From assembly GCA_001599295.1 (NCBI GenBank), contig BCGN01000001.1, positions 1,550,001 to 1,614,000 of the forward strand: 64,000 nucleotides of DNA. The letters run 5' to 3'. Every line of letters begins with the position of its first letter. Positions within the stretch are counted from its first letter, which is position 1. The DNA comes from Sporopachydermia quercuum (lineage: Eukaryota). The translations under genes and the position numbers were made by a program. Below the pieces are notes generated by a model that saw only the letters and a program-made list of their open reading frames with translations, did no database searches and was not told the DNA's origin. Positions 6,991 to 63,640 of the stretch are shown one piece after another.

Positions 6991-8946
6991 ATGTCAAAAG
7001 CTGTCGGAATTGATTTGGGTACCACATACTCTTGCGTTGCCCACTTTACCAATGACCGGGTTGAAATTATTGCCAACGATCAAGGTAACAGAACTACTCC
7101 ATCTTTCGTTGCCTTCACTGATACTGAAAGATTGATTGGTGATGCTGCTAAGAATCAAGCTGCTATGAATCCTGCTAACACCGTTTTCGATGCTAAGCGT
7201 CTTATCGGTAGAAAGTTTTCTGACCCAGAAGTTCAGGGTGATATGAAGCATTTCCCTTTCAAGGTTATTGAAAAGAGCGGAAAGCCATACATTGAGGTTG
7301 AGTTCAAGGGTGAAACTAAGGTTTTCACTCCTGAAGAAATTTCTTCTATGATTTTGACCAAGATGAAGGAAACTGCTGAGGCTTACTTAGGTGAAAAAAT
7401 CACGGACGCTGTCGTCACAGTTCCTGCCTACTTCAATGACTCTCAACGTCAAGCTACCAAGGATGCCGGTTTGATTGCTGGACTTAATGTTATGAGAATT
7501 ATTAACGAACCAACTGCTGCCGCCATTGCTTATGGCTTAGATAAGAAGGAAGGCGGTGAAAAGAACGTTTTGATTTTCGATTTAGGTGGTGGTACTTTCG
7601 ATGTCTCCTTACTTTCTATTGAAGATGGTATTTTCGAAGTCAAGGCTACTGCTGGTGATACTCATTTGGGTGGTGAAGATTTCGATAACAGATTGGTTAA
7701 TCACTTTGTCGCTGAATTCAAGAGAAAACATAAGCAAGACTTATCTCAGTCTCAAAGAGCTTTAAGAAGATTGAGAACTGCTTGTGAGAGAGCCAAGAGA
7801 ACTCTCTCTTCCTCTGCTCAAACCTCTGTTGAAATTGACTCCTTATACGACGGTATTGATTTTTACACTTCTATCACCAGAGCTAGATTCGAAGAATTAT
7901 GTGGTGATTTATTCAGATCTACTTTAGACCCCGTTCAAAAGGTCCTTTCTGATGCTAAGATCGACAAGGGTGCCGTAGATGAAATCGTTTTGGTTGGTGG
8001 TTCTACCCGTATCCCCAAGGTTCAAAAGTTGGTTTCTGACTTCTTCAATGGTAAACAGCCTAATAAGTCCATCAATCCTGACGAGGCTGTTGCTTACGGC
8101 GCTGCTGTTCAAGCTGCTATCTTGTCTGGTGACACTTCTTCTAAGACTCAAGATTTATTACTTTTAGATGTGGCTCCTCTTTCTCTTGGTATTGAAACTG
8201 CTGGTGGTGTCATGACCAAGTTGATTCCAAGAAACTCTACCATCCCTACTAAGAAGTCTGAAGTTTTCTCTACATATGCCGATAACCAACCTGGTGTCCT
8301 AATTCAAGTCTTCGAAGGTGAAAGAGCTAAGACCGCCGACAACAACTTGTTAGGTAAGTTCGAGTTAACTGGTATTCCACCTGCTCCAAGAGGTGTTCCT
8401 CAAATTGAAGTCACCTTTGATTTAGACGCTAATGGAATTTTGAATGTCTCCGCTGTTGAGAAAGGTACTGGTAAGACCAACAAGATTACTATCACTAATG
8501 ACAAGGGTAGACTTTCAAAGGAAGAAATCGAAAAGATGGTTGCCGATGCTGAAAAGTACAAGGAAGAAGACGAAAAAGAATCTGCTAGAATTTCCGCTAA
8601 GAACGGTTTAGAATCCTACGTCTACTCTTTGAANAACACCACCTCTGAAGACTCTTTCAAGGAGAAGGTTGACGCTGAGGAACTTTCCAAGTTGGAAACT
8701 CTTTTGAAGGAAACCGTTGACTGGTTAGATAACAACACTACTGCTACCACTGAAGAATTCACTGATAAGCAAAAGGAAGTTGAAGCCGTTGCCAATCCTA
8801 TCATGACCAAGTTCTACCAAGCTGCTGGTGGTGAAGGTGCTGCTCCTGGCGGATTCCCTGGTGCTCCTGGTGGATTCCCTGGTGCCGGTGCTGGTGCCGG
8901 TGGTCCTCCTCCTGCTGACGGTCCAACTGTTGAAGAAGTCGATTAA
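6991..8946 (+). CDS. SSA1: Cytosolic Hsp70 (SSA family)
   Basis: [19 protein letters not shown]-terminal GPTVEEVD; strong codon bias; exact SSA paralogue cannot be resolved. Confidence 0.97.
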
Positions 8947-9479
8947 ACAATTCTCATAACATAAGTATAATGATTTGGGTTTTTCAGTTTTACATAGTCT
9001 AATGATTTTCGGTAGAGCAAACAAAAATATAAATGCTATTAATTTATTCAAATTCAGAATTATACTGTAGAATCGAAATTTTGTGAAAGGGTCACTATTT
9101 ATTAATATTAACCTCTTAAGTTACAAGTTACTATGTGAATGGTGGCTTCCATAACGTGAGTATAAACTGTGGGTATAAACTGCTTCAAGGAACTGTTTTA
9201 TGCCAATCTATAGAAGTGATTCACACATGTCTCTTACTTCATAATGAATTAGAACAATTTTGAGATTGTACGTACGTAGAGCTTTTCAATTGAAACCACA
9301 AACAAGACACAAACAAGCGCACAGACGCTACTCTACTATAGTAAAATCTGTCGCTTCTAATTATGAATTCCAATATAAATCGAACCAGGAGTAATCTTTT
9401 AAAGGAAGTTTTTAACAAGTAAACTAAAAGATGAGATTCTTAACGGAAATGCATATTGATACGTGATTTTCTACATATT

Positions 9480-10935
9480 ATGTTGAAAGTTCTGGAGCAA
9501 AAGGTTTGAAGTTTCATTTTCCTCCACTACAATACAAGAGATAAAACCTTGCTCGGGAGAGAAGCCCAATATTATGACATTGTAGATCATCAAGTGCTGG
9601 GGTAATCCTTNAATTCAATCAAATATATAGAATAGATTCCTACAAACAGGTATTTAGCATTTGTTATCTATTAACAAACTACTGTAGGTTTAATCAAATC
9701 TCAAGAATATAATATTTTGGATTTGAGAAATTTCTGGAGAGATCTCTCATCTTATGCCGTATACATCCATTCTCTTCACTATATTTTTCGTATTCACCAG
9801 AAAAGATAGAATCTAAATATCTCGCTTTGCCAATGTTTGCCAGCATTGCCGAGAAATCAGCAGCCGATTCGTAGATAAGTCCTTGCTCTCCATTAATTTT
9901 ATTGCCTTCAATCCGAGTTACCCATCGTCATCAAAACCATCCAATAAGAGGGCCTTCTCATCTCATCACCCATTGCATTCTCATTCTCATATTATAGACA
10001 GAACACCCCCCAATTAAGACCAATGAGCGAAGCAGACATACAATACCAAATGACATATTCACGATACATTCATTATTTTAAAATAATGCGGGCACTCCTG
10101 ACTAATGAGAAACGTTTAAGAAAGCCATATTGTTATAAAACAATTAAGAAAGCGCTAACTGACCACGGTCAACCAACCACTCGTTTCCTTGGATGAACAA
10201 GTGAACGTCATAACTCTCCTATCTCATTACATCCCCTATGGATACTGAAAAGTTTCAGCGTTCAATTTATTATGTACATGAGAAAGTGTAAAATAAATAA
10301 CGTTTTCCACTAATTAATTGAAACTGCAGAACTGTACATTTTTCTGCAGGACAATTAGTTCTTGTCAGTTTGTCAGAGATAATAATTGTCAACAAATTGC
10401 TAAATAATGACAATTGAGTAATATGAGCAGTATTGCATTNAGTAAGCACAACATAGTAGTGTACCAATCAGTTTAATGAAATTAATATCAAACTTGAGAA
10501 ATTCACCACACTCTAGTGTTCCATTGCATCTTAATCAAGGCAATCAATTGAGGACTTATATGCTTTATTGTTCTCAATGGATAATAGAATGTGTCATCAT
10601 TTAAGTTTCAAAGTAGTTTCCTGACATAATTCTCATCAATGATGATAGAATTACTGTAGCAAATGTGGTGGATATTCGACTTACCACACCTACAGTAAAT
10701 ATATCGCTAAATGGTGAATTGTCAATATGAACTACAAGATAATTAGTTGTAATTCATGAAATATGATAAAATGAGTCAACTAATGCAACTATAATATTCC
10801 AATATCACTACTACTCTAGAGTTTCAATCGTGTCCCAAAACGTGATTCGGGTTTAAACCCCTCTTGTGGGCTGTGAGACTACTCTANCTATGCCCAAGTA
10901 AATAAATGTCAAGATCTCCAGAACCTCCTATTTAT
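9480..10935 (+). ncRNA. Candidate large structured ncRNA, possibly telomerase RNA
   Basis: No long ORF; TATAAAT 9374; end-to-end pairing 9489-9497/10916-10924; about 120-nt hairpin 10613-10735; template-like CCTATCTCATTACATCCCCTAT 10218-10239; TACTAAC 10987. Confidence 0.45.
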
Positions 10936-11357
10936 GTCGTAATAGTGATTTTCCTCTTTTGGCCATGTCATGACTGACTTGCAGATTACTAACTCTTTCC
11001 GAGATTTGAAATTCTCCACGATACGACGATAGGTGGAAATGGAAACCCACCATTGAAAAGTCGAGTTGTTTACTTTCTTATGCGAATTGAAGAATNNGAA
11101 TATTAAGGAAAGAACTGTTGATAAAAGGTTTNTAAGACATAAAGTCTAGTAATTATCAGTCATCAATTTGATTTTCAGTGAAAGATCGCGTCTGTCTGTT
11201 GTTCATTTTATAGTATAAGGGGGAGTTTTGTGTACTTGACCAGCTACGTTTCATACAAGCACCTATTTCACATTATTGCCTTTGGTGTTAAGTGTTATTC
11301 ATTGAAAAGTTTGAACACTTCTATTACAACAAAAAAGTTGATATTGGAACAAAGAGA

Positions 11358-13208
11358 ATGACAACCAATAGTCCGAAAGATCTTCTATCATCATCAGTGA
11401 AAGCCTCAAGCAAAATGAGCATTGCTGAGTTAACTGCAAGTACAATCGCTCCGGTTAGTGATAAAATCTCCACGAAATCTGGGGTTATTATAGAGCCGGA
11501 AACAAGTGTCAAAACCAATTCAATGACAAAAGATAATTTACCTACAATAAATTCGACGATTTCGAAATCGATTGATGATTCTAATGCAAATATTTCTTCT
11601 AAGTCTAATAATGGTGACCATGATACTGGGCCCTCCAATGCGGCTAATATGTTAACAAGCCATGTACAAAGGGGAACATCGTCCTCAATTAATCCAAGCC
11701 AGATATCAACATCATCTCCTATCGGGTTNGCAGCAGCTTCTGCTGTAACTCCAGATAAATTATCAAAGCTTTTGACATCACAAGGTCCCTTGGCTATACG
11801 ACATCTTACATCTCATTTGGCAATGTCGATTCCTGGTTTTGCTAATCTTTCATTATCTAAACAACGGCGATTGATAATGGCAGCTTTAGAGACAGGTGAT
11901 GTTGCTAATAGCATAGTATTTCAAAAAGTAGGATGGGGTCAATGGGCTGCTAAGAAAGTCACACCAGAATCTTTTGAGTATCATCGGCAGAAAATACTCC
12001 AAGCAAATAGTTCAAGCCATGGTGTTGCAAGTGCCAATACTGAGAATGGATCTAATGGTAACACCGACCCTTCTTCTTCATCAACAAGTCCTAATCCTGT
12101 TATTGGCCACTATTTATCTGCTGGAAAGAATAATAAGAGTCTAAACATTCGTCGTGAAAGTNTTACTAATCCTCAAAATGATGCACATGCTACCAGAGTT
12201 CCTTTTTCTCCTCCATTGAAATCAGGATCTTTTAGAACCGGTAATGAGAGTGGTTTAGTTGATGATGACGAGGACGATGTGGACGATAATGAGCATGCAA
12301 TTTCTGACGATTCAGAAGATGATATCGTCTACGATGAGAAACAAGGACGATATGTTTCGAGACAAGCAAGGGCTAGTAGTGGCCGTAAAGGATCGAGCAC
12401 ATCTCCTTTTGCAAGAGGATCTTTGGCAAATGGTTTAAGAGATGCCCCCGTTTTTGATGATGATGACGAGGAAGATGCAGATGAGGGGATTTTTCAAATG
12501 AATGTCGATGATGATGTCGATCTGGCTGATGATGATATGATGTTTCATAATAGACCTTCCGTGTCAACCAGTAAAAAGCAAATAAAAGCTAAGAAGAACA
12601 GAAGTCTGAGTAGTAGCGCAAGCACCAAATATGGAGCATACAGGAAATTATCGACGGAAAGAATAAGAAGAAAAAGCGGCAATCACACACGTCCCATGAC
12701 GTTATCATCATCTTTTACTAATTCTTTAACAAACGATTTCTCCCTTTACTCTCCATCCAATTCCTCCTCATATTCAGAATACTCTACTTACTTACCTGCA
12801 TCGCTGCCTCAACCATACTCTTCTTCTTTTGTGCTTTCAAGTACTCGAGGATCTCAATCAGATAAACCTCCAAACTTCTCTACTTCGCCTGGAGTTAGCA
12901 CACCAAAAACCTTATCAGTTCCTGTGCCAAATAAAGAATACAGGGTAAAGAAAGAATCATCATTATCACATTCATACACAGGTGCAAGAAACAAGTCAAT
13001 TGGTTCTAGTAGTGTGGGAAAACTGACTTCTCATAAGAATAGGAGAAGTTCTACATCATCACATCCGTCTGAAACAGAAGACGAAGATTGGCAATCTATG
13101 GGTCCTGAATCTTTGAGACGCGAGAGTGATTCTCATTCTAAATCAAGCAGTATTGAGCCTAAAGAAGAAGATGCAGTGTTAGCTCTAGTCAATTTGAGCG
13201 CTGTATGA
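11358..13208 (+). CDS. STB3: Sin3-binding, RRPE-binding transcription factor Stb3
   Basis: TPDKLSKLL...GPLAIRHLT...IPGFANLSLSKQRRLIMAALE...FQKVGWGQW domain; C-terminal ETEDEDW and EDAVLALVNL; first ATG at 11358. Confidence 0.9.
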   Translation: MTTNSPKDLLSSSVKASSKMSIAELTASTIAPVSDKISTKSGVIIEPETSVKTNSMTKDNLPTINSTISKSIDDSNANISSKSNNGDHDTGPSNAANMLTSHVQRGTSSSINPSQISTSSPIGXAAASAVTPDKLSKLLTSQGPLAIRHLTSHLAMSIPGFANLSLSKQRRLIMAALETGDVANSIVFQKVGWGQWAAKKVTPESFEYHRQKILQANSSSHGVASANTENGSNGNTDPSSSSTSPNPVIGHYLSAGKNNKSLNIRRESXTNPQNDAHATRVPFSPPLKSGSFRTGNESGLVDDDEDDVDDNEHAISDDSEDDIVYDEKQGRYVSRQARASSGRKGSSTSPFARGSLANGLRDAPVFDDDDEEDADEGIFQMNVDDDVDLADDDMMFHNRPSVSTSKKQIKAKKNRSLSSSASTKYGAYRKLSTERIRRKSGNHTRPMTLSSSFTNSLTNDFSLYSPSNSSSYSEYSTYLPASLPQPYSSSFVLSSTRGSQSDKPPNFSTSPGVSTPKTLSVPVPNKEYRVKKESSLSHSYTGARNKSIGSSSVGKLTSHKNRRSSTSSHPSETEDEDWQSMGPESLRRESDSHSKSSSIEPKEEDAVLALVNLSAV

Positions 13209-15922: not shown

Positions 15923-17619
15923 TATGCTATGTTATGGTAGCAATGTGGTAGCAGCGAAGGCTCTGACCGAGCCAAGGAACAACCTGTTTAATGAATATAA
16001 ATTCAAGATGAATTGGAGTTGAAATTGGTAATATAATACCACCAAAAAGAAAAAAGACAAAAAGAAAAAAGACAACGTTGTTCTTTTTCTTTTTCTTTCT
16101 TTTAATTTTGCCTCGTTGAATTATCGTAGAATGATAAGTTGTTCCCCAAGTTTATGAATAGTTTATCTCTTCAAACGATGCTGCCCCCTCTGCTTCCTGT
16201 GTCCTTATTAGAGTGCTTCAGCTATAGATAACGTAACGTTATCAAAGGGTATCTATGGTCTTCAATAGACTAATAGTTTTAGTTTCTTAATCTAATCAGC
16301 ATAAGATTTTTTATTGGTTCATTGAACAAACTTTTGATGAGAAGTGGTAACTTTCAATTTCTAAACGACAAATAATAAGAAAGACAAAGAAATGTTGAAC
16401 AAGCGAAACGGTGATCATCATATAATAGGACTTATTATTAATAACGTAAGGGGCCTCATCTGCACAATCCGCATTTGTGTGCATGCAATTTTTGTATACG
16501 TAAAGTGAGGGGGGCATTAAAAGATACGTACTGACAATAGAGTGAGGTTTAGGTTTAGTAGCGAAGAAAATGAAATATAAATGCATGTGTCTGTGACTTG
16601 ATTCAAATTTAATGACTTTAAAAATGAGAAGACGGAATTAATTGGCAATAAAATCAATCATGAAGCTCATATTCTAAACATTGGATAATAGAGAGTGTAT
16701 CTCATATTTTGTAATAGTAAAAACCATTAGTTTTTAACTGCTCAAAGGCTGCTAAAGTTTGGCGTTATACGCGAAAGGTTAAAGTTTATTCATAGAAGAA
16801 ACAGAGGTGAAATTTCAAAAAGTCGAATGAAGATATAATTATTAATAAGACACCAAAAGGGTTGGTACCAACAGGATAGAAACACTATAACCAAGGTGAA
16901 AGAATCGAATATTAATAGATTGATCGTATAGAATTAGTTGATAGTGTGATTCTCGTAAGAGGAGGAGCAATTGTATTTGATTTATGTAATTCGAATAGGG
17001 TAAGAAAGAGAGATAAAATGATTAGTTTTTATTGGTTGATTGGTAATTTTCGATGATTAGTGAACAGTCCTTATTATTTTATATACAAGACGAGGTTAAT
17101 AGCATGAGATAACAATAATGGGTGATGTATGACTGAGATACTTTGAATGGATTGACAATGGTAAGAAGGAGCTGAGAATAGATATACCAGTAGTGGAATC
17201 ATAGGAATTGTATATAGGAATTGAAAATAATTGAATAGAGGTTGAGGCATCAAAATCGAACGATGGAACAGAAGCATTAGGTGGTGAGTCAATAGCTGCA
17301 CTAAGTGGTGGTAGGAAGCCTCGTAGAACTAGGAAGGACAGCCATCCTAACAGGAGAATTAATTTGAATAAATATGAGTGAATGATAGCTTTTCAACCAA
17401 TTTTTTTGAGGCTCAAGCATTACTAAATTCGAGTAGCTGAAAAGAGTAGCGAATATGGATTGAACTGCTTATCACTGAAAATTGTCGGTACTACTGGTCT
17501 CATTATCACCAACTAAAAATTTACAGGTCAATGAAAGAAACTACAAATAAACTACTGGAAATAGGGAAAAGTCCACAGTTTCATTATATGATCATTGCAG
17601 GATCAATTACGAATTATGA

Positions 17620-20633: not shown

Positions 20634-20677
<44 letters not shown>
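20634..20677. repeat. (TGAT)11 microsatellite
   Basis: Perfect tetranucleotide repeat. Confidence 0.95.
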
Positions 20678-21413
20678 AAATCTGCATTCAAACAACAATT
20701 ATGACGATCAGATAATTGTAGTCTTGCCTCAAGTGTTGACACTTTTCTGCACCAAGTTAACCAAGGTAAACAAACAACACAACAACGCTTTCAATAAACA
20801 TTATAAATGTTATTGACAAGCTCATTGTTCCAAAGCAACTACAATCGATCACCGCAAATGCAAACAAAAAAACAGTCAAATTTCATCAAATATTCTCAAT
20901 TCTTTCAAACGCATTGCTCCCTCTTTTCTGATCTTCATATCGTTTGTTCTCAATAGTCAAAAAAAAAAAAGAAATTTCTTTTAGAAAATTTCTATCTCCT
21001 TGATTTCAATAATCAATCAAATCAATTCCAAGTTTTATGACTATAATATCCATTTTATCTTGCACGCCACGTTAACAGACAGTTTCAACTTCTACTCATT
21101 GTTTTCATTCTCACATACCAATTTCTTCAACTTCAACTCAACTCGATCCTAAAACAACCGACTATGCATACAGTTATACACAATTCTTTAGATTGATAAA
21201 AGTATGTGTATCTAATATTAAATCTATANACACAAGCAGAAGTAAGGTAGCTCGAGATACAATCCTCTGTTTGTTATTAGCAACAGACAAACAATTACAA
21301 CTGGAAATTTTCTTATTCCGTTGTGAGACGTATTATTCTACTAAAGTTTACTATGACATCGCCACAAGTACAATGNGTGATATACCAATCGGGTAGCTTT
21401 AGTGAAAAAGCCA

Positions 21414-21422
21414 CCGGGTAAC
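21414..21422 (+). promoter_or_regulatory. Reb1-type site in the GBP2-STS1 divergent promoter
   Basis: CCGGGTAAC. Confidence 0.5.
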
Positions 21423-22034
21423 TTCCCTAGAAAAGGGTAAGTTTGATAATAGACTATTGGGGGATACGGAAGATATTAAAAAACGTAGAATGATATTTAA
21501 AATTGACGTAAGCATAAATTGCTTATCACAGGCAAAGAATTTTTCTGTGGTAAAAATTATGTAACACTATTTTGTCATACAAAAAGGCCTCTCCGGTTGC
21601 CATTTGCATTGAGAGAACAAAGAATTTTGGAACGATAACAAATACCGAATAATTCCTGAACCTTGAGCCATACAGCTTTCTTTGATAGTAACAAAGAAAA
21701 ATTGAGTTATTAATCGAAAGACAGTAGAACTATTATTTATGTTGTTGCATAATTGAGGGAAGATCATAGAAGTCGAAAGAACGGGGGGACTCAGTTGTGT
21801 GAAGGGTGTTTGTTAACTGTGGCACCAACGTACTAATAACAGGATAGTTTAACTATTTTTATGATAAGTCAGCAAATATTGGTGTAAAAGTATTTATTGG
21901 AAAGAATCTGTTTAGTATCTGTTTCTTCTTGTCAATAACTAATAGTTTATTGCGGGCCTGTGCATATATTTGTTAGCTTTGCTGTCCCAAAGACAAACAA
22001 GAGAACTCTACAAGAAAAGACTGCCATTTGAATT

Positions 22035-29411: not shown

Positions 29412-32400
29412 TCACGTTAAAATAAAGGATTATGTGAACATTATTGTTCTGCTGGTGTGAGGAAAGACNGAAAGGCCCCCGGAAGAATTATTTGATTGCG
29501 GTAATTAAAGCTTGAAAAGCTTGGGTTTAAGTGTTCCAAATGAGTTGTGATAAGAAATATAATAATTTAAAGGGATAAATAGAACTTCAATTCTACAAAA
29601 GTTTCCATTCTAATTGCGTGATGGCATCATCATNACCCTCCTACAAATTATTTAATTCAAAGTGATTACTAAAAAAAAGCGGAAAAGATGAGGAGAACAA
29701 TATAATCATCCAAACGTACGCAGGAAGAATGTTGAATATTTTTCCGAGGTGCAACATTTTTGAAGCGCATTGGACGAACATTATTTCTTACAGAATAGAA
29801 TTTAAAACAGTAATTCTATGAAGAACTCTTTTGTTTTTTGGTTTTGGCATTAGATCTTTGAAATTAACCATATAGGAAGATTTTTGTTTTATCTTTGTTA
29901 TAACGACCCATGAACTACATGCCTCCCAACTACATTATAGTTCTTCGTCATTCCTATTCAATCAATAGTGGAAATTCTGCACCTGAAAACAAACTTATTT
30001 CTTTCCTATTTAAGTTAAAGGTGAAAGTTTGTTGACCCTATCCAGATTGACTTCAATCAATTCTTCTGCACCTTGCACACCTTCTTTAATAATTTGTCTT
30101 TTTATTGTTAAACATCTTATTGAGAAGTGACCTACTACTACTATCCTTACGATCAAAATGCAAAGCAATTTTGCAAGAGAGAATATTTTTATTTGTATAC
30201 ATAATTATTCACTGAAAGCTACAAAACAAAAAGACAATAGATCCAAGTATATGTTTCCATATAAGCTTTAAGCTCTCAGATTTAGGCCACACTTTATTTG
30301 AGTTTAGCGCAGTTGAAAATAAAGTATAAAAACATTCGCATCTATTTTACTTANCTAGTTTCTACAAATGAAAGATTGATTTACTGATATATGTTTTATA
30401 CTTTTGTTTCAAGAATAAATGAATGAGAATTAAGTATGAATTTGGCATAGAAAGATTAGCAAGGTGAAGAGAGTTTGAAGGCAATCTTGTAGAAGAATGA
30501 CAGATTGAATCTGGCATAAGAAAGAAAGGCTCGGGTTGTCATACTTCTCAGCTTCCAACAAAGTAGTTACAGTGTTTTAGGGAATTCTATAGTTTGTAGA
30601 AAGACTTACGACAAATGGAATGATTGCCAGGTATTTTTTCTGTAGGTTTTCTAAAGATATATCAGATCCAGCTAGATATTGTGAAGATGAAGATCATTCG
30701 TGACTTTATCAAGCTGATAGGAACCCCAAACGGGAGAGTTTTTTAAGTGCCTAGCCATTTATCACCTCAAGACTTCTGTTTGATAACGAAAGACACTTCT
30801 TCTGAGGCGAATGGATCTAGTCAATCTCTAAAACTGCGTAACTTCTAATAACAAGTAATTTTGGATATTCAAACAATAATCAATCAATGCATTGTTTTCA
30901 GTGACATCTGGATGTGTAATTGTTCGAACGTGCAGAGTAATTTTCATCACAGCATACTATTAACTTTTTGACAACTTTGTTCATACGTAAGAATAAACAA
31001 GACGTCAGGACATAGAAAGTTACATGTAGCTGGCTCTATTGAGCCAGTTGTATGGTTAAACTGGAAAAGGCATTTAAGAACATGTTTGAAGTTTCTGTAA
31101 GAANACAGCTAAAAATATAAGTATTCGAGCAACTTATTTTGTTCAAATACCTATTTTTCTCTTCTTTCAATAACTCAACTGACTGATGAAATGAATATGT
31201 GAATCACATAGATCTTTTAATATAGTATTGGCTGGTGCTTCCCTAGTTTACATGAATAGTTTAGAAACTAGTAATCATTCAATCTATTTTCTTCTTTCTA
31301 CAGGATCCACTTCGTTCGTTGACCTTTCATTGTACTCCCACTTAATAAATGAATCAGATTCGATAATGTGATGAATTTGACAAGCAACTACCTCTTTTGG
31401 AGTTAACCGATCTATTATGTCTAACCTTAATTATTCAACTGTCTTATGCACCTTAAACTGATAATTTGGGTGACATACTGGTTGTGTTCCCTGAAGGGCT
31501 ATGGTTTGAAAATAGAATGAAGTACTCTAATCTCACACCAAACGCTGGGGAGAAGCATGTCCATATGGATAGTATCGTATCATTCCCAGTTTTTCGACAG
31601 GTGCAGATTTATTACCAATCTCTATGATCCTTTATTTAACTTCATGTCTCCTACAATTTTCTTCATAAAGTTTCCGATCTAGTTATAGAGCAGATCCAAT
31701 AGCTAACTCAAAGTAGTTAACAACAAGTTTCAAAAGATTATCAGTATCAATTATTGATTTTATTCATCAAGGGGTCCTATCTTATCTTCCATTCAATTGT
31801 TCTAACAATGGACCTCCAGAAAATGAAATGATGAAATGACATTGCTATTGAGAAGATCAACGTAAATAAAGTTTCAACGTTTGATACGAAGATGTGTCAT
31901 TTTTAATGTGTCCGCAACTTACTTTTTCACTTCTTTTCAATTGTTGTCTCCACCAAAACAACGAAACTGTCAAACGTAGAAAACTGTTCATAAAAAAAAA
32001 ATATGACGAAATTCTTGCCTACTCGGTTTCTCAGAGCATTTTTTTTTCCAGTAGGGAAACAATCGCTCTATAGGGTCAAGTAGATGCATACTAATCCTCG
32101 CTAATAACGATTTCAATGAGCCAAACTTATTCATCTTGCACAAATTCATCGACCATTTTCTGCCCCTGATGTTTCGCTCTATTCGTAAAGTTGGACATGT
32201 TTATGTCTGATTTGAATTTTTGACAAGCGGTATTACGCCATAAGTTTTTGCGATCATCATCATCATTGGTCACACTATTGTTGATTCTGAAATCAAGGAG
32301 AAATAAATTTCTGTTCTTTATANAAACAGGATTTTAGGATGTTATTGAATTTTGTTCTCTTCATTCATCTTATTTTCTTACCTCTTTCATTCTCTCATTA

Positions 32401-33440: not shown

Positions 33441-35703
33441 ATGTCACAACAACCACACCTCTTACCAACGGGGTCAGTGGTNATTTCGGACGTCAATGTT
33501 TCCGATCAAAGGCAGACACTGAACGCGTTTATCTACGATTATCTCCTGAAAAATCATTTATTTGAAACAGCGAAATGTTTTGCTCGTGATGCTGATGTAC
33601 CAAGAGTCATTGATAGGTTGCCCGGAACTTCTTTAGCAACAGTTGTTGAATCTCCTACCTCGACTGGCTCTGGATTGCCAGGACCTGCTGCTAGTGCAGC
33701 CCGTTTACGTGACATTAGAGCAAAATATCCTGAACATGAGCTACCTGATGCTCACGTATCTATGAATTCTCCACAGAGTTTTCTGTACGAATGGTGGGGA
33801 GTGTTTTGGGATACTTATAAAGCTAGAGGTAATCGCGGTGGTTCTTTAGCTGCAAAACAGTACTTACAGCTGCAAAACATGCGACAACAGCATGAACAAT
33901 CAATGCATAATATTTCATCACAGCAACAGCCATCCTATGTTCGTGGAGGGCAGGGACAGGATTATCTCATTGGTGATTCTGGTGTGGTGCCTGGAGTTAT
34001 ACCTAATCAAGCTGCTGTTGCTGCAATGGTCAATGCTCGAAATCTGGCACATTCTTCTCCTGATGGCGTAAATGTTCCAGTGGTAGAATCTGATCGTCGG
34101 GGAAGAGTTGGTATGCCAAAAATATATTCAATGGGTCAACCAGGTGGTCCTGGGGGTCCCGGAGGTCCAGGTGGCCCTCAAATGTCGGTTGCACAACAAA
34201 TGTCTCAACAGAAACCAATGCATCAATCTCCACAACCCCCACCACAACAATTTTCACAAATGANTACTCAACCGCCATCAGCTTACCCAAATCCGTCTCA
34301 AACTCCTATAGATCCTTCTAAGCCCCAGTTTCCATCTCCTAAACGACAAAAAGTGTCACCAGACGAGGTTTATGGTCATGTTCAAGGAATGGATATGAAT
34401 CCAAATGGTCTCAATGGTCCAAGTGGTCAGAATGGAGCAAACGGTCCATCACCACAAGTTTTCCAGGTTAAAACAGAAGCTCAGCCACAATTATATCAAG
34501 GTCCTCAACAAGGCATGAGGGTAGTCTCCCGAAATAGTCCCACCAATCAGCAATATCATCCCGGGATGCCCCAAAATGTTCCAAATGGTCCAAATGGTCC
34601 AAATGGCGGTTTAATGGTTAAAGGACACAAGCCAAAACAGGAACAAATCGGAATTCCCGGGAGCGCATCAAATCAAGCTCCACGAGCAGGTAACCTGAAT
34701 GCTCTGCAGGATTATCAAATTCAGTTGATGTTATTAGAAAGACAGAATAAAAAGAGGTTAACTTCGAGACATAATGGAGAACCAGGATTGGAGCCAAATG
34801 GCAATGAACCAATAGGACCAAATGTACGTGCTAGATGGAATATGGCACAGCAAAGACAACAAGCTGGTCAAGGACCAATGGTTGTTCATGGTGGCCCTGG
34901 AGGTCCTGGTGGTCCTCAATCCCAGATTCAAGCTCAATCTCAAGCCCATGCTGGCACTGGGACCAACGTTGATGGTAACGGAGACGGGAATCTTCTTGGT
35001 GGAAATCCTAACTCGGCTCTTGGACACCAGCGTTCGCGATCCATATCTGTTTCCCAGACCCATGGTCCACCTCCAGGTCAACTTCAAGGAGGTCCAGGAC
35101 AAATACAATCTCAAACCAAATCGCAGCCACAACAGATTCAGCCACAGCAGCAACAAGGTGGACCAGGACAGAGCCAAACGCAACCGCAGGATCATACATC
35201 AATACAATCAAAAGGTATTCCAGACAAAGAGAGCCTGATCGAAATGTTACCGCCATCTAGTAATCCGTTGATGCAACAACGGAACACACCGGTATCATCC
35301 CCAAATGTTCCTCAAACCCCTAATGGGGGTTCTGCCACTACTCCCGGTTCTGTAATGGTTCAGAAAGTAGCCACTGCTGCAGCTGTTGCGAATAAACGGA
35401 AGAAAGGTGAACCACGGCAAAGAAGAGCAAAGAAAGGAACCAGCGGGGGTCCTGGAACCCCCAATGCGTCAGAACCACCTACTCCAACTACTCCTTTGAC
35501 ACCACATCCACCCGCAGGCGGGCAACCTGTTGTTAAAAGAGGTAAGAAGTCATTCTCTTCTGCTCCACCCAATCAAACCATTATTCAAGCAAGGAATGGC
35601 TACGATCAACAACAGCATGATTCCAGTGGTGCCAATCCTATCATTCAAATGGATATATCGGCAGCTGTTTCACCTAATCGAATAATCTCACAAGGATCTA
35701 CTC

Positions 35704-35767
<64 letters not shown>

Positions 35768-36233
35768 GCAACAACAACAGCAACAACAACAGCAACAACA
35801 ACAGCAGCAGCAGAAGCAAGGCCAACAATTACAACCTCAGAATCAAATCCCGAACAAAACTCCCAACCAAAACTCCACTCAACCTCAGAATCAAAGCCAG
35901 AATCAACCTTCTAACGAATCCCGACAACCCACTGGACAGAATATTCAACTACAGAACAACAACAATAATCCTACACCACAACAAATTTCCTCGTCACATA
36001 ATCCGACACCTCAGAGTGGCTCTGCCAGTGCGCCGGCCACAGGTCTAGAACAACAAGATTCTTCCGTGTTCTTATCATTAAGTGAATTTGAAACAGGTGG
36101 AGATACAGGTGGAACTGATTTGGACTTCGATTTCAATTCTTTCCTTAATACAGGAGATCATATATCCAATAATGTCAATTTTGATTCCACATTCAACTGG
36201 GGAGAAAGTGTTGAAGCTTCCGGTGATGTTTAA
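33441..36233 (+). CDS. FLO8: LisH-domain transcription factor Flo8/Som1 family
   Basis: LNAFIYDYLLKNHLFETAKCF (LisH), FLYEWWGVFWD, PSPKRQK, ALQDYQIQLMLLERQNKKRL, acidic-aromatic DFDFNSFL tail. Confidence 0.85.
35703..35813 (+). repeat. (CAA/CAG)37 polyglutamine repeat in FLO8
   Basis: 111-nt trinucleotide tract. Confidence 0.95.
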
Positions 36234-36572: not shown

Positions 36573-38027
36573 TTACATATTCTTTTTTCTGTTATCTTTT
36601 GTAGCTTTGTTTCTTCCATAATAACAAGGGCTTATAATAACTATTAAAGAGAGCACAACCAACACTGAGCTCCACCATCTGGAAGGGAAAATATTCCATG
36701 CTGCTTCCTCAATAAACCAAACGAAAAGTGCAATCCACCAGGTATAGTTTTTGCTCAGGATAAAAGGAACCATAAAGTAGAACCATGAATAAAACTGGAA
36801 ATGCAAAGATCTTGCACAGAGAATTCCAATTAAATTCACCGTTGATAAAATATAAAACATATCAAATGGACTCAAAACACTTTGGGTGAGGGTTGGTTTC
36901 AATTCGGCTAAATCGAATATCACTTTAGGTATAAGTTTCCATTGATCACTAGCAAGTACTTGTTTAACAACCTTCAGTCCAAAAAGCATCAGTAAAAGTA
37001 GATGAATAAGCAATAATGTAGAAGCAAAAGCTTTCGATTGGAACAATTCTTCAGGGATAAATTTCCAGTTAACTGACCAATAGTAAATGAACTGTCTGCT
37101 GAAATCAAAAGCTCCTGATATATATGATGTTGCATTGCCATCGAGAAAGAAATCACTACCAACTAGCAATTGAATAATTGAGACAGAAACAAATGCAATG
37201 GCAATTGTTTGGATTAGATTCCTGTTCAGAAGAGTTATTATCAACATTCCTGGAAGAAGTAGCAAAGCATTCATTTTGATGGTTGTAGCAAATGCGTAGC
37301 TCAGCCAGCTACCAATAAAGCATAATTTTCGAGTCTTCTCCGAGGTCGCTTTAACGGATCTCTGAAGTAAATATATTGTGAGAATCACAAAAAATGTTGT
37401 GAAACAATCATTGAACAATCTAAGAATGTAAATCGAATGCAATCTCTTTGACAATACTAATAAGAAGAGCGACCATGGGGGAGCTTGAGCTTCAATGTAT
37501 ACAAGAAAAGTAGCCAACTGAGTTACTATATATAATCCGGCAAATAAATACTGGGCTTTCAGTACATTTGAGCCGTTATCTGTAATCTCTAATAAAATGT
37601 TGTATATTCTGACATATCCTGCAGGATATACTATAGGACCTGTAGCACCAGTTATCCTCTAAAAGNTTAATCAATGTTAGCAAGAGTTGGTAAAGAGTAT
37701 CGGCTATCACTTTATAAAACTTTGAAAAAGTGGCTTACAGAATAATCACGTTCTCCATTTCGTATTAATGTGATTTGCTCCATATAAGTGCTCCAATCGA
37801 TTTCCGTNTCTAGAGATAATCGTTAGTAGTTGAATAGGTGATATCAGAGAAATGCGTAGTACAGCAATGATCCAAATAGAATACAACATACAGGGCACAT
37901 ATAAGATGATCAGATAGCACAGTGCTACTTCAAAGAGCACTAACAGCGGAACATAATAAATAGAATATTTCGGCTCTGATACAAGCCGAAGAAGTCCTAA
38001 TGTCAGCCTCGGAATAACCAAAGGCAT
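36573..38027 (-). CDS. ALG3: Dol-P-Man alpha-1,3-mannosyltransferase; exons ~38027-37892, 37809-37739, 37658-36573 (start uncertain)
   Basis: Splicing restores VPYTEIDWSTYMEQ...GERDYS|RITGATGPIVYPAG; SKRLHSIYILRLFND, KMNALL, WSVNWKF, RSLHFQFYSW. Confidence 0.92.
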
Positions 38028-48730: not shown

Positions 48731-50847
48731 CTTCTTCGATACTTCAAATCAAATAAAAGGGTAAAGCAATGTGTATTATAGACTGTTAGACAAGTNGTTC
48801 ACTTAACGTATTCTTGCTAGTCGCTATGATGGTTGAATAGTGTTATGTTGACAATAGTTGATGCTATCAAATGTTGAAATTTCAAAAGAAGAGTTGAATA
48901 GTTTGCCTCATTAATAAGGGAAATCTTATGAAAGTAATTCTCCGTTAAATGGCCAATAGGGAAGAATTAGACTTAAAGTTCGAATATAATCTGAATTGAG
49001 TTTGGGGTAATTGTGTAAAACACGGAAATAATGATGAAAACGGAAATGAAAAGGGGGTAATTGGAAATATAATAGCGGAGATTATATTACCTTCCTTAAG
49101 AGTGAACCGATAGTGCTTGGTGAGAATAAATAGGGAGTTGAGGATTAATTATATATAATTGTTGATAAATTGAATCTATTGGTTTGATTTGTTTATGTAA
49201 TAGAATAGATGAGTTGCTTGGATTGTAAATAAGGGGGGTAATTCCCGGTGAAGGATGCTGCTTTATATAGAATGTGATACGAGGCTTTTAAGGCAATGCG
49301 CATGGTGGAGAAACAATTGCAGGCATGAATAGATTTTCTTGGTAATTTTATAATAATTAAATGATGAAATAGCTTGTAACTGTGAAAAAAATAATGAAAA
49401 CTAGAGAAACTATTTGGATCATTATTATTTAGCTATAGAAGTCATAATATCATGCATTCTTAGTGAATGATCAATAGATGATCAGTATGTTAATGTTATA
49501 CTGAAAGATATGGCTACTACAAATTGATCCATATTTGATTACTATTCGTTGTCATACTCAAATGCTTTAACCCTGGCAATAATCGTGTCAAAGAAGAGTT
49601 ATTCGCAATAAGGCTATTAATTCCCCACATTTTCCTTTCGAATCTTTCTGATTAAAACGAATGAACATTGCCAATAATAAACGAGCAAATAGAGTACCCA
49701 TTCTGACTAAGCATTATATCACAAGGCTAATAACAACTGCGTTTTCTGGCAGGTGCCGGCATTAGTACTGCATAAAATAATTCATCTAGACGACGAGAAG
49801 CCGTCAAAATGGATAGCAATATGGGGATCAATTGTTGAGATAATATGCGTTTGAATTAACTAATTAACGATAATGATGAGATTTATTTGCTTTTAGTTGA
49901 TTGACCTGACTGATTTTAATGTAGTAGTTCATGTCAAAGTCTGAGATGGGAAACACTGGTGAAACTGTTCCTGCGTATGTCCTGTTGGTTACGTCATGTC
50001 CACAATACAGTCTATCAATTGAAAATATGGGAAACAATGTGCCTTGTACGACCCAGTGGTTGGTCAGCCCTGGAATGTCGGCATTAGAACTAAGAAAGTG
50101 AAAGCTGATAAGATTTGGCAATTTCATTGCATTATTTATTAATTGTGTCATTGGTTCAAATGATTGGATATTGAATCATTTTGGTGCTCTTCGCTGGAAG
50201 TATNTGTCGCATAAGGGAAGAGACGTCATCAAGTAACACCGGCTGAGACCAATTTTCAAATATTGCCAGCTGATAAATCATCTCAGAGTGTTATCAACCT
50301 GAAATAATTAATTCATGTTTCGTGATACTTATTCTTAGTGAACTTATTCGAACATGAAGAACACCTTATCCATTTTTCTTATCTATCTGTTCCTATCATT
50401 AGGTGTATGTCTCCATAGAGATGACCGAAGATACTAGCACTAACATATACTGTCAAACATCCTTATCTACATCAACAATTATGTTTCAAACATCAAGTAG
50501 CTCCGTAATGATAAGTTTCTTATTATCACCTTATATCAAATCATACTTTCAATACTTTTAATGCATCTGATTATCACATGATCATCGTCTTTCTGTTATC
50601 TAAATGAGGATACCTGTTTTGGGACAATCTCATCTTCCCCATCTTTATTCGTTTTTTAGCGACGAACCCCTATTTTAAGACGAAAATTGGCCATAACAAA
50701 AATCAAATGGAACAAAGTCTCTCTCTTTATGTTGATGATCACTCACTAGTCAATACGGTTTTGAACGTGTATAACTATGAAAATATATGTCAAAGAGTAA
50801 ATGGATAGATTAGTTTTGTATATTTGGGTATATTTAGGTTATTAATT

Positions 50848-55872: not shown

Positions 55873-56185
55873 TTACTCTGTAAATGTTGATCGGTATCGA
55901 GTGCTGAGTAAATAATCTCAGTCCACGCATTGCACTTAAGAGATCTTAGTGCAAGAAGAAAGGCACTAAGTCCAATTTCCCGCAAGGAACTTCCATAAAC
56001 TGATAGCAGTTTGAAATTTCTGATGTCCCTGCCCAGCGTTTCCACGCTTGGAAGCTCTCAAGAGCAAACTCTCGTGATGAGAATTACAACTAGGGAAAAG
56101 TGTATCACCGAATTTCCCACCCAGGGTTTATTACCTCGATGAGGTCCTTTCGTGTCCGGGTATGCGTGAATCATCGCAGAGTAAC
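55873..56185 (-). ncRNA. RPR1: Nuclear RNase P RNA
   Basis: All five conserved regions in order on the minus strand: GGGAAATTCGGTG (56118-56106), ATCAGAAAT, ATGGAA, AAGTGCAATGCGTGGAC, ACTCGATACCGAT (55902-55890); P1 TTACTCTG/CAGAGTAA; T5 Pol III terminator at 55872-55868. Confidence 0.95.
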
Positions 56186-62723: not shown

Positions 62724-63640
62724 ATGTCCAGTGGAAGTGCAGCTATCCTCGCTCGTCAATACAGAGAGTTAACAGACCCCAAGAAGGCTATTCCTTCATT
62801 TCATATTGAAGTAAGTAGATATTGTAACGTACTGTTTTATGGAATGTAAATGATTCTTTGGATGAATTATGATACTAACTATTTTTCATAGCTTGAAGAT
62901 GATGATATATATAGATGGTAAGTTAATGGTTTTCGTTTTCGCGTCTAATTAGTTCTGATACCAACAGAATAAACTTGATTGCTATAGATACATTACTAAC
63001 TAAATAAAACAGGAATGTTGGTGTTATGGTATTGAATGAAGACTCTATTTACCATGGCGGCTATTTCAAAGCTCAAATGAAGTTTCCTATTGACTATCCA
63101 TTCCACCCTCCTACATTCAGATTCACTCCTGCTATTTATCACCCAAATGTTTACAGAGATGGTAGATTATGCATTTCCATTCTCCATCAAGGTGGAGATC
63201 CAACGTCAGGAGAGTCTGATGCTGAAACATGGAGTCCCGCACAAACTGTTGAATCTGTATTGATTTCTATCGTATCTCTATTGGAAGACCCCAATACCGA
63301 TTCACCAGCAAATGTTGATGCTTCAGTGGATTGGAGGAAAGACAGAGAGGCATTTAATAAAAGGGTTTTGATGGACGTAGAACGATCAAAACAAGATATA
63401 CCNGAAGGCTTTGTTATGCCAAGCGCTTCCACAGCATACGTGTCATCAAAACCAAATCCGACACTTGAAGAACCTGTTGATGATGATTTCTGGTATGAAT
63501 CCGAAGATGATGATGAGGAAGATGAGGACGATATTAGTATTGATAGTGAAAGTTTAATGGAGCAGGACGATGATGATGATGACGACGAAGACGAAGAAGT
63601 AAGCAGCGCAAATGAGGATGAAGAAATTAAAGGAAAATGA
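62724..63640 (+). CDS. CDC34: Ubiquitin-conjugating enzyme Cdc34/Ubc3; exons 62724-62810, 62892-62917, 63013-63640
   Basis: RQYRELTDPKKAIPSFHIE|LEDDDIYRW|NVGVMVLNEDS; HPNVYRDGRLCISILH with acidic loop; DDFWY and acidic tail; two GTAAGT...TACTAAC...YAG introns. Confidence 0.96.

Follow-up and report, generated by a model that had tools for sequence, protein, structure and literature searches.

The DNA that separates an SSA-type Hsp70 gene from STB3 in this yeast is probably, though well short of certainly, an ordinary intergenic region together with the STB3 leader, in which a 22-nucleotide string with the shape of a telomerase template is a chance look-alike. The initial annotation of the window (the whole stretch of 64,000 nucleotides that was analysed) had read positions 9480–10935 as the species' telomerase RNA, adding (GGATGTAATGAGATAGG)n to chromosome ends. 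We regard that interpretation as unlikely in any form, and as very improbable in the exact 9480–10935 version, which accounts for only a share of that likelihood. The evidence obtained leans against it—the clues are at chance level, the Sm and Rfam comparisons are negative, the template is predicted to be paired, and the 5′ third is unstructured—while a TACTAAC/AG signal, an over-structured core of about 850 nt, and a predicted repeat of the GGATG type keep the idea alive. Features are collected in Table 1.

Table 1. Positions of features in the Hsp70–STB3 gap, its flanks, and the local introns used for comparison.
Feature	Position	Strand	Remarks
SSA-type Hsp70 gene, left flank	6991–8946	+	651-aa ORF; Pfam HSP70, E 1.7e-261
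ORF-free gap	8947–11357		2,411 bp, between the Hsp70 gene and STB3
TATAAAT	9374–9380	+	string only, putative
5′ arm of proposed terminal helix, GTTCTGGAG	9489–9497	+	perfect 9-bp complement of 10916–10924
ATG ORF of 57 codons, shortly before the 22-mer	10023–10196	+	probably no gene
Over-structured core	10040–10886	+	z −3.13 and −2.91
Local 9-bp hairpin	10182–10207	+	ends 10 nt before the 22-mer; minimum-energy structure of 9480–10935
Template-like 22-mer, CCTATCTCATTACATCCCCTAT	10218–10239	+	17-nt unit plus 5-nt overlap
Partner strand of 22-mer centre	10272–10283	+	11 Watson–Crick pairs with one bulge, to 10222–10232
GTAAGC, nearest 5′-splice-site string of local-intron type	10442–10447	+	545 nt upstream of branch point
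GTGAGA, 5′-splice-site-like	10873–10878	+	114 nt upstream of TACTAAC
3′ arm of proposed terminal helix, CTCCAGAAC	10916–10924	+	complementary also to 9732–9740
ATTTATG, weak Sm-like string	10930–10936	+	outside the AU(5-6)GR consensus quoted in PMC3851723
CTCTTTTGG, second weak Sm-like string	10954–10962	+	without the consensus leading A
TACTAAC branch-point consensus	10987–10993	+	string match
First AG past branch point, possible 3′ splice site	11002–11003	+	ends 10 nt after TACTAAC
STB3 gene, right flank	11358–13208	+	616-aa ORF; Pfam Stb3, E 1.7e-29
ALG3 intron (GTATGT; TACTAAC)	37885–37890; 37822–37828	−	spliceosomal
UBC gene introns	62812–62891; 62919–63013		spliceosomal

In composition and size the gap is unremarkable: its GC content is about 0.335–0.344, that of other gaps 0.25–0.36, and among the 18 gaps listed for the window 9 exceed 1.4 kb. 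The description of the locus as ORF-free was borne out, the longest non-Hsp70 stop-to-stop frame within 8960–11290 being 82 codons. Pfam gave no match at E ≤ 1 on six frames tested in the gap (the sole match was Ribosomal_L39, E 9.6), and the 57-codon ORF drew none, together with two weak matches (E 3e-5) among 1.84 billion proteins, both made of several matched stretches. A hidden protein gene was therefore rejected, the six frames lacking a Pfam match and the 57-aa ORF real relatives. The TATAAAT named in the initial annotation is present, and further TATA-like strings lie at 9990–9997 and 10134–10140. The Hsp70 protein is 87–88% identical to Hsp70s of Sugiyamaella, Geotrichum, Yarrowia, and Lipomyces; among named yeasts, the closest matches to Stb3 and the Pol1 core reach 45–55% identity, and a collection of 15 billion proteins contained none of eight window proteins. 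To judge by these proteins, the species would belong among the isolated, early-branching Saccharomycotina. An STB3-based search for syntenic loci in metagenome contigs returned 24 pattern matches, none of which was confirmed.

The 22-mer itself is where it had been reported, with CCTAT at either end and those ends 17 nt apart. This one-repeat-plus-5-nt form speaks for a telomerase RNA, and it is the target of a published template-search method (PMC6115765). That the shape exceeds chance, however, did not hold up: a count over the whole 64-kb window of G-less strings with a unit of 6–30 nt and a terminal repeat of at least 5 nt yielded 432 look-alikes, the unit being 17 nt long in 16 cases. The C-richness class of the 22-mer (at least 40% C, unit of at least 8 nt) held 24 of these strings, and CATCC was present in 10, as compared with 284 G-less strings, 9.6 C-rich, and 4.8 with CATCC in block shuffles. 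When a C content of at least 40%, CATCC, and location in a gap are combined, the 22-mer stands alone among the 432, and this too favours the telomerase reading. Set against one telomerase RNA gene per genome, 432 look-alikes in a single window give a base rate from which we infer chance; the prior is low, and every clue first put forward for the locus is at chance level. No tandem array of the predicted repeat was found in the window, and the absence of exact 22-mer matches from metagenome, prokaryote-genome, and viral contig sets is uninformative because these sets contain few yeasts.

The 17-nt repeat predicted from the 22-mer contains both GGATG and TAGGG. The TER1 group of Candida/Debaryomyces, the subject of Gunisova et al. 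2009, reportedly has GGATG-ending repeats. Both motifs, at similar length, recur in the repeats of Debaryomyces hansenii (TTGAGGTGTAGGGATG) and Candida psychrophila (TTATGAGGTGTCTGGATG) (PMC7857110), and splice-type signals lie downstream of Candida/Debaryomyces telomerase RNAs (PMC6746865); the window proteins, however, are not close to that clade. By eye, GGATG occurs in roughly one-sixth of the published yeast telomere repeats in Table S1 of PMC7857110 and repeats of this type in six yeast families. The GGATG character of the prediction is thus a point in favour of telomerase, as is the TGTAATGAG that it has in common with the Ambrosiozyma kashinagicola repeat, TGTAATGAGCCAGGG, of the same table. 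By our estimate, however, it is not clear that a 9-mer match to a single repeat out of about 190 listed exceeds chance, and the lineage is an early-branching one, where most repeats in that table measure 7–11 nt. Also weighing against the telomerase reading, 12-mers covering all rotations of the predicted repeat on both strands were absent from the telomere papers in the literature searched, and Table S1, searched as a whole file, contained no exact or near-exact match. A search for TGTAATGAG in telomere-related literature brought up nothing relevant by title or abstract. The 17-nt repeat of Ascoidea asiatica, tried as a template, gave no matches at up to three mismatches.

In size, paired ends, and central template, the 9480–10935 model copies the architecture of Saccharomyces cerevisiae TLC1, an RNA of 1.2–1.5 kb (Rfam family Sacc_telomerase). 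The locus departs from that model in several ways. The Sm motif AATTTTTGG, perfectly conserved in Saccharomycetaceae telomerase RNAs (PMC6115765), is absent, and the 5′ third is unstructured. A cmscan search of 8500–12000 with a cutoff of E ≤ 10, covering 4,227 Rfam families, returned four matches, none of them to a telomerase family; this is to be expected in divergent yeasts, and large structured yeast RNAs missed by Rfam are most often telomerase RNAs (PMC6115765), which counts for the telomerase reading. As to the paired ends, the complementary arms exist, as do TGACATT at 9575–9581 and AATGTCA at 10905–10911, and 9489–9497 has a pair probability of 0.54–1.0 when exactly 9480–10935 is folded. 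Their frequency is nevertheless that of chance, the gap holding 23 perfect 9-bp inverted pairs separated by at least 300 nt where 50 shuffles gave 20.7 ± 6.3, and TTCTGGAGA at 9732–9740 is as good a partner for the 3′ arm. We agree with the initial annotation that a canonical Sm site, AU(5-6)GR, is missing near the proposed 3′ end, where ATTTATG sits as reported. An ATTTTGG occurs at 9714–9720, distant from every proposed 3′ end. The missing site is not fatal to a telomerase RNA, since HpTER of Ogataea (Hansenula) polymorpha lacks one too.

The claim of many plus-strand hairpins stands for part of the locus. On the plus strand, 10040–10439 and 10442–10886 reach the z values given in Table 1, in that order, with none of 100 shuffles as stable in either case; of 42 strand-windows, each 400 nt long, from other gaps, one reaches a z of −2.9, although the limits of the two segments were picked after viewing a 200-nt scan. 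The minus strand is likewise over-structured (z −2.49 and −1.94, respectively), and the proposed 5′ third, 9613–10039 on the plus strand, has no excess structure (z +0.39); both results count against a telomerase RNA. Because the minus strand of the core is also over-structured, palindromes at the DNA level fit, and the inspected helices are indeed Watson–Crick palindromes (CATTATTTTAAAATAATG at 10069–10086, CTGCAG...CTGCAG at 10323–10349, and 10222–10232 with 10272–10283). These observations would suit a feature that acts, or formerly acted, at the DNA level and has no RNA function, such as a decayed mobile-element fragment or palindrome-rich DNA; we consider this improbable, as inverted repeats at the ends are no more frequent than the shuffles predict and no transposase-like frame was found in the gap.

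Within the 22-mer, the single-sequence ensemble prediction gives the centre (10222–10232) a pairing probability of P ≥ 0.87 and a probability of being unpaired of 0.00–0.13, and only 10218–10221 and 10233–10238 are predicted to be free. The helix with 10272–10283 recurs in a 400-nt fold. This predicted pairing of the template centre argues against a telomerase RNA, since the template is single-stranded in published models (HpTER, PMC3851723). The 9-bp hairpin at 10182–10207 is the only candidate template boundary in the predicted structure. The minimum-energy fold of 10442–10886 is multibranched, and neither reading of 10240–10935 nor the predicted folds, all from a single sequence, yielded a pseudoknot of the U-tract/A-tract arrangement; nor could a three-way junction or Sm site be placed, a further point against telomerase.

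Downstream of the core lie the signals that most resemble splicing. TACTAAC occurs 15 times in the window against an expected 7.04 ± 2.62, and 3 of the 15 fall in the introns examined (62873, 62994, and 37822–37828). In these three introns the AG ends 12 nt after TACTAAC, as compared with 10 nt in the candidate, and the 5′ splice site lies 62–76 nt from the branch point, as compared with 114 nt. Local introns begin with GTAAGT, GTATGT, or GTAAGC (the last being the 5′ splice site of an ALG3 intron in the window), whereas the candidate has GTGAGA, unseen among the local introns examined, and would sit in a non-coding leader. The 540 nt preceding the branch point contain none of the three local forms, only GTGAGA. 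All three frames read after 11003 stop before 11292, and therefore any intron there is non-coding. Since TACTAAC and its distance to the AG are like those of local coding-gene introns, an intron of the downstream gene suffices; the TACTAAC/AG signals are explained equally by an STB3 leader intron or by chance.

An ordinary intergenic region would thus be laid out as follows. The first ~0.5–1 kb of the gap would take in the 3′ region of Hsp70 along with unstructured spacer, and the hairpin-rich 10040–10886 would be the STB3 upstream or leader region, its palindromes folding about equally on either strand. STB3 transcription presumably starts within the gap. GTGAGA at 10873, TACTAAC at 10987, and AG at 11002–11003 may delimit a 130-nt STB3 5′-UTR intron, if the leader intron is used, or may have arisen by chance, the TACTAAC at 10987 then being among roughly seven expected from window composition. 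The centre of the 22-mer would be just one strand of an 11-bp hairpin. Several points count against this account: two adjacent plus-strand segments of ~400 nt have z ≤ −2.9, a local-type 5′ splice site is absent within 540 nt, the part of the STB3 leader left after the intron, at least 355 nt, would be long, and the predicted repeat contains GGATG together with TAGGG.

A telomerase variant that fits the fold data better than the 9480–10935 model is a compact RNA of ~0.8 kb, roughly 10030–10872, with its template (10218–10239) some 190 nt in from the 5′ end and its 3′ end formed by the first splicing step at GTGAGA 10873 using TACTAAC 10987; the two models jointly make up the small likelihood that we allow telomerase. 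Spliceosomal first-step 3′-end formation is found in fission-yeast telomerase RNAs also. HpTER has mature forms of 680–689 nt, a template at 170–187, GUGAGU at 690, and UACUAAC at 720, and is without a canonical Sm site (PMC3851723). The candidate is thus like it in compact size, in a template near the 5′ end, in a GUGAG-type site followed by UACUAAC past the mature end, and in the missing Sm site, and these parallels favour telomerase, as does the way in which the over-structured region ends at GTGAGA 10873 with TACTAAC and AG to follow. Atypical 5′ splice sites are moreover typical of telomerase RNA processing (PMC4299874). The two differ in that the branch point of HpTER lies 30 nt from the 5′ splice site and that of the candidate 114 nt, and in that the HpTER template is single-stranded and the candidate's predicted to be paired. 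Counterparts of the HpTER Est1 hairpin, AUGA-hairpin pseudoknot, and three-way junction were not placed in the candidate, which is a sequence prediction only.

The same core and downstream signals could instead belong to some other structured plus-strand RNA at 10040–10886, such as a long leader or a non-coding regulatory transcript ahead of STB3, which would be spliced from 10873 or 10442 to 11003 and would contain the 22-mer merely as a stem strand. The plus strand is somewhat more strongly structured than the minus strand, the splice-type signals lie on that same strand, and the centre of the 22-mer is buried in the predicted helix. The two strands differ little, however, no Rfam family is found at E ≤ 10, and the evidence points to no known class, so that such an RNA also seems unlikely to us. 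Least probable is a combination of these elements: a compact ~0.8-kb telomerase RNA from an isolated, intron-rich lineage, with a 17-nt GGATG-type repeat and a spliceosomal cut at GUGAGA, whose precursor would run into, or be common with, the STB3 leader. If true, a single transcription unit would have two alternative products: telomerase RNA when splicing halts after its first step, and STB3 mRNA when splicing runs to completion.

The preferred reading, an intergenic region with a chance look-alike, has a consequence for the search for such genes: in an AT-rich yeast genome, one repeat plus an overlap is matched hundreds of times per 64 kb and, without the telomere sequence, predicts next to nothing. 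Most budding yeasts outside Saccharomycetaceae lack an annotated telomerase RNA, because the fast evolution of these RNAs defeats homology searches (PMC6115765). Should the telomerase interpretation nonetheless be true, the locus would provide a new telomerase RNA from an isolated lineage, together with the repeat that it specifies and the way in which its 3′ end is formed. The RNA would be of a known kind, and would add a further data point on the "runaway" evolution of yeast telomeres.

The C/A-rich 22-mer CCTATCTCATTACATCCCCTAT, taken in the initial annotation as the template of a telomerase RNA (TER) with a 17-nt repeat, is present at 10218–10239 on the plus strand, as are TATAAAT (9374–9380) and ATTTATG (10930–10936); it is real as sequence yet not beyond chance. 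The window is yeast nuclear DNA (35% G+C), its 74 N being apparently scattered singly or in pairs (e.g., 9612, 10440, 10887, and 11097–11098). The gap holding the 22-mer is of ordinary size (9 of the 18 listed gaps exceed 1.4 kb), and the candidate's GC of 0.344 lies within the 0.25–0.36 of other gaps. The gap is ORF-free as claimed, the longest stop-to-stop frame outside the Hsp70 gene being 82 codons. There is no sign of a hidden protein gene: frames are short, no Pfam match at E ≤ 1 was found in six frames, and a 57-codon ATG ORF (10023–10196) drew only two weak matches among 1.84 billion proteins (several short stretches each, E 3e-5). Elsewhere, a 930-aa ORF without a Pfam family (33441–36233, +) carries a (CAA)33 tract at 35703–35803 and several 9–24-nt coding repeats, and a perfect (TGAT)11 microsatellite (20634–20677) lies in the gap upstream of a Cut8-family gene.

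Features of the locus and of local introns (window positions)
Feature	Position	Strand	Remarks
SSA-type Hsp70 gene	6991–8946	+	651 aa; Pfam HSP70, E 1.7e-261; left flank
ORF-free gap	8947–11357		2,411 bp; between Hsp70 gene and STB3
Predicted local hairpin	10182–10207		ends 10 nt upstream of 22-mer; could serve as boundary helix
TACTAAC, yeast branch-point consensus	10987–10993	+	
First AG after TACTAAC	11002–11003	+	
STB3 gene	11358–13208	+	616 aa; Pfam Stb3, E 1.7e-29; right flank
ALG3 introns (at least 2)	37822–37890, 37661–37738	−	
UBC gene introns	62812–62891, 62919–63013	+	both in first ~300 nt

Template-like strings, defined as G-less strings in which a 6–30-nt unit is followed by a direct terminal repeat ≥5 nt long, number 432 on the two strands of the window (206 plus, 226 minus; block-shuffle mean 284). 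Of these, 16 have a 17-nt unit, 24 are at least 40% C and have units no shorter than 8 nt (block-shuffle mean 9.6), and 10 contain CATCC, the complement of GGATG (4.8). Only the flagged 22-mer combines C-richness, CATCC, and a position in a gap; by our extrapolation to a whole yeast genome, this criterion would find hundreds of equals. Other plausible-looking "templates" are CTCATTTCCCCTCAT (1007–1021, +) and AAATATACCCAAATATAC (50818–50835, −); with 17201–17223 (−), these lie in other ORF-free gaps, have overlaps at least as long as the flagged one, would specify repeats like GGGTATATTT or TGAGGGGAAA, and show how often the criterion fires. The end pairing proposed for the 1.45-kb model exists (9489–9497/10916–10924 and 9575–9581/10905–10911), but 9-bp pairs occur in the gap at chance frequency (23 perfect inverted pairs with a spacing of 300 nt or more versus 20.7 ± 6.3 in 50 shuffles), and the 3′ arm 10916–10924 could pair equally well with 9732–9740. 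Taken singly, none of these initial clues is beyond chance, and an ordinary Hsp70–STB3 intergenic region plus STB3 leader, in which the 22-mer resembles a template by chance, is slightly favoured as the true state of affairs.

With up to three mismatches allowed, the window has a single copy of GGATGTAATGAGATAGG, namely the template (26 of 100 shuffles contain at least one match), and no tandem array of it was found in the 64 kb. A full-text search with 12-mers over every rotation of the predicted repeat, on both strands, found no telomere paper containing them; they are also absent from the whole of Table S1 of PMC7857110. Scans of metagenome, prokaryote-genome, and viral contigs gave no hit to the 22-mer, and no STB3 relatives were found in metagenomes. 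GGATG appears in roughly one in six of the yeast repeats listed in that table, from six families (by-eye count). The Ambrosiozyma kashinagicola repeat TGTAATGAGCCAGGG has TGTAATGAG in common with the predicted repeat, the other nearest look-alikes being those of Candida psychrophila (TTATGAGGTGTCTGGATG) and Debaryomyces hansenii (TTGAGGTGTAGGGATG) (PMC7857110 Table S1); by a rough estimate, chance is not clearly exceeded when a 9-mer is shared with one of ~190 purine-rich repeats. Early-branching lineages in the same table have mostly 7–11-nt repeats, which makes a 17-nt GGATG-type repeat less likely a priori. The source itself looks, from its genes, to be an early-branching budding yeast, isolated and rich in introns: none of eight window proteins is present in a 15-billion-protein collection, and the best named relative of Stb3 is from Saccharomycopsis crataegensis (45% identical across 34% of the query). 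The Pol1 catalytic core shows only 50%–55% identity to every yeast listed, and Hsp70 shows 87%–88% to Sugiyamaella, Geotrichum, Yarrowia, and Lipomyces and 85% to Ascoidea rubescens. The source seems to be a draft assembly without annotation, from a species without close sequenced relatives.

In favour of a telomerase RNA is the Ogataea (Hansenula) polymorpha-like arrangement of TACTAAC/AG just downstream with GTGAGA. The only 5′-splice-site-type strings upstream of 10987 are this GTGAGA at 10873 (−114 nt) and GTAAGC at 10442 (−545 nt). The account of the O. polymorpha RNA (HpTER) in PMC3851723 gives GUGAGU at 690, UACUAAC at 720, and the template at 170–187, without a canonical Sm site; fungal telomerase RNAs outside Saccharomycetaceae are described as gaining their 3′ ends from the first splicing step, frequently with atypical 5′ splice sites (PMC4299874). 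A compact ~0.8-kb TER, from ~10030 to 10872 and matching the structured core, would be cut at GTGAGA, with ~190 nt between its 5′ end and the template. This model would fit the HpTER-like pattern better than the 1.45-kb one, whose terminal helix would then fall inside the intron. A 130-nt STB3 leader intron would explain TACTAAC, AG, and GTGAGA equally as signals, and TACTAAC occurs 15 times in the window versus 7.0 ± 2.6 expected by chance, hence about half are noise. For a budding yeast, the genome is rich in introns, judging from the UBC gene and ALG3, whose introns have GTAAGT, GTATGT, or GTAAGC as 5′ splice sites, at a distance given as 62–76 or 50–76 nt from a TACTAAC or NNCTAAC (e.g., TGCTAAC) branch point; three of the four have the AG end 12 nt past this heptamer, and the other has it at 18 nt.

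The "many hairpins" assigned to the plus strand survive in part. The plus strand is over-structured across 10040–10886 (z −3.13 for 10040–10439 and −2.91 for 10442–10886, with 0 of 100 shuffles as stable for either), but 9613–10039 has no excess structure (z +0.39, with 65 of 100 shuffles at least as stable). On the minus strand, the two core segments are also over-structured (z −2.49 and −1.94), and thus the signal would come largely from Watson–Crick palindromes, with a modest strand preference. This ~850-nt core, its limits chosen after seeing a 200-nt scan, is unusually structured in predicted folds: in other gaps, z −2.9 was reached by 1 and z −2 by 5 of 42 400-nt strand-windows, and z −2 by 9.7% of 124 200-nt strand-windows. 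Some other structured plus-strand RNA is an explanation to hold as doubtful, and a DNA-level feature or mobile-element relic is quite improbable. Strongly negative values also occur in other gaps, at 21169–21568 (−; 400 nt, −3.80) and, among 200-nt windows, at 31024–31223 (−; −4.35), 15973–16172 (−; −3.50), and 55908–56107 (−; −3.49).

An Rfam scan of 8500–12000 (all 4,227 families, E ≤ 10) gave four weak matches and no telomerase family, a silence expected in divergent yeasts (PMC6115765). A canonical Sm site is indeed lacking: near either proposed 3′ end there is no AU(5–6)GR, only ATTTATG and CTCTTTTGG (10954–10962). Neither a triple-helix pseudoknot nor a three-way junction could be placed in the candidate. 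Published models have the template single-stranded beside a boundary helix (HpTER, PMC3851723). Against a telomerase RNA, the template centre here (10222–10232) is predicted to pair with 10272–10283 (11 pairs, one bulge; P(unpaired) 0.00–0.13 in the ensemble of 9480–10935), leaving only the two CCTAT ends free, and this helix recurs in the 10040–10439 fold. On these predictions, the paired centre is the most damaging result for the telomerase RNA reading.

With a single telomerase RNA gene in each genome, the prior for a 64-kb window would be ~0.5%, and that for each template-like string far lower. Roughly, C-richness, GGATG, and gap location jointly raise the odds by about two orders of magnitude, the splice-type signal perhaps tenfold, and the structured core a few-fold; the paired template, the missing Sm site and pseudoknot, and the early-branching placement take back some of this gain. 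A telomerase RNA at this locus, mostly as the compact variant, thus appears unlikely on present evidence; if true, it would be a new telomerase RNA of an already known type.
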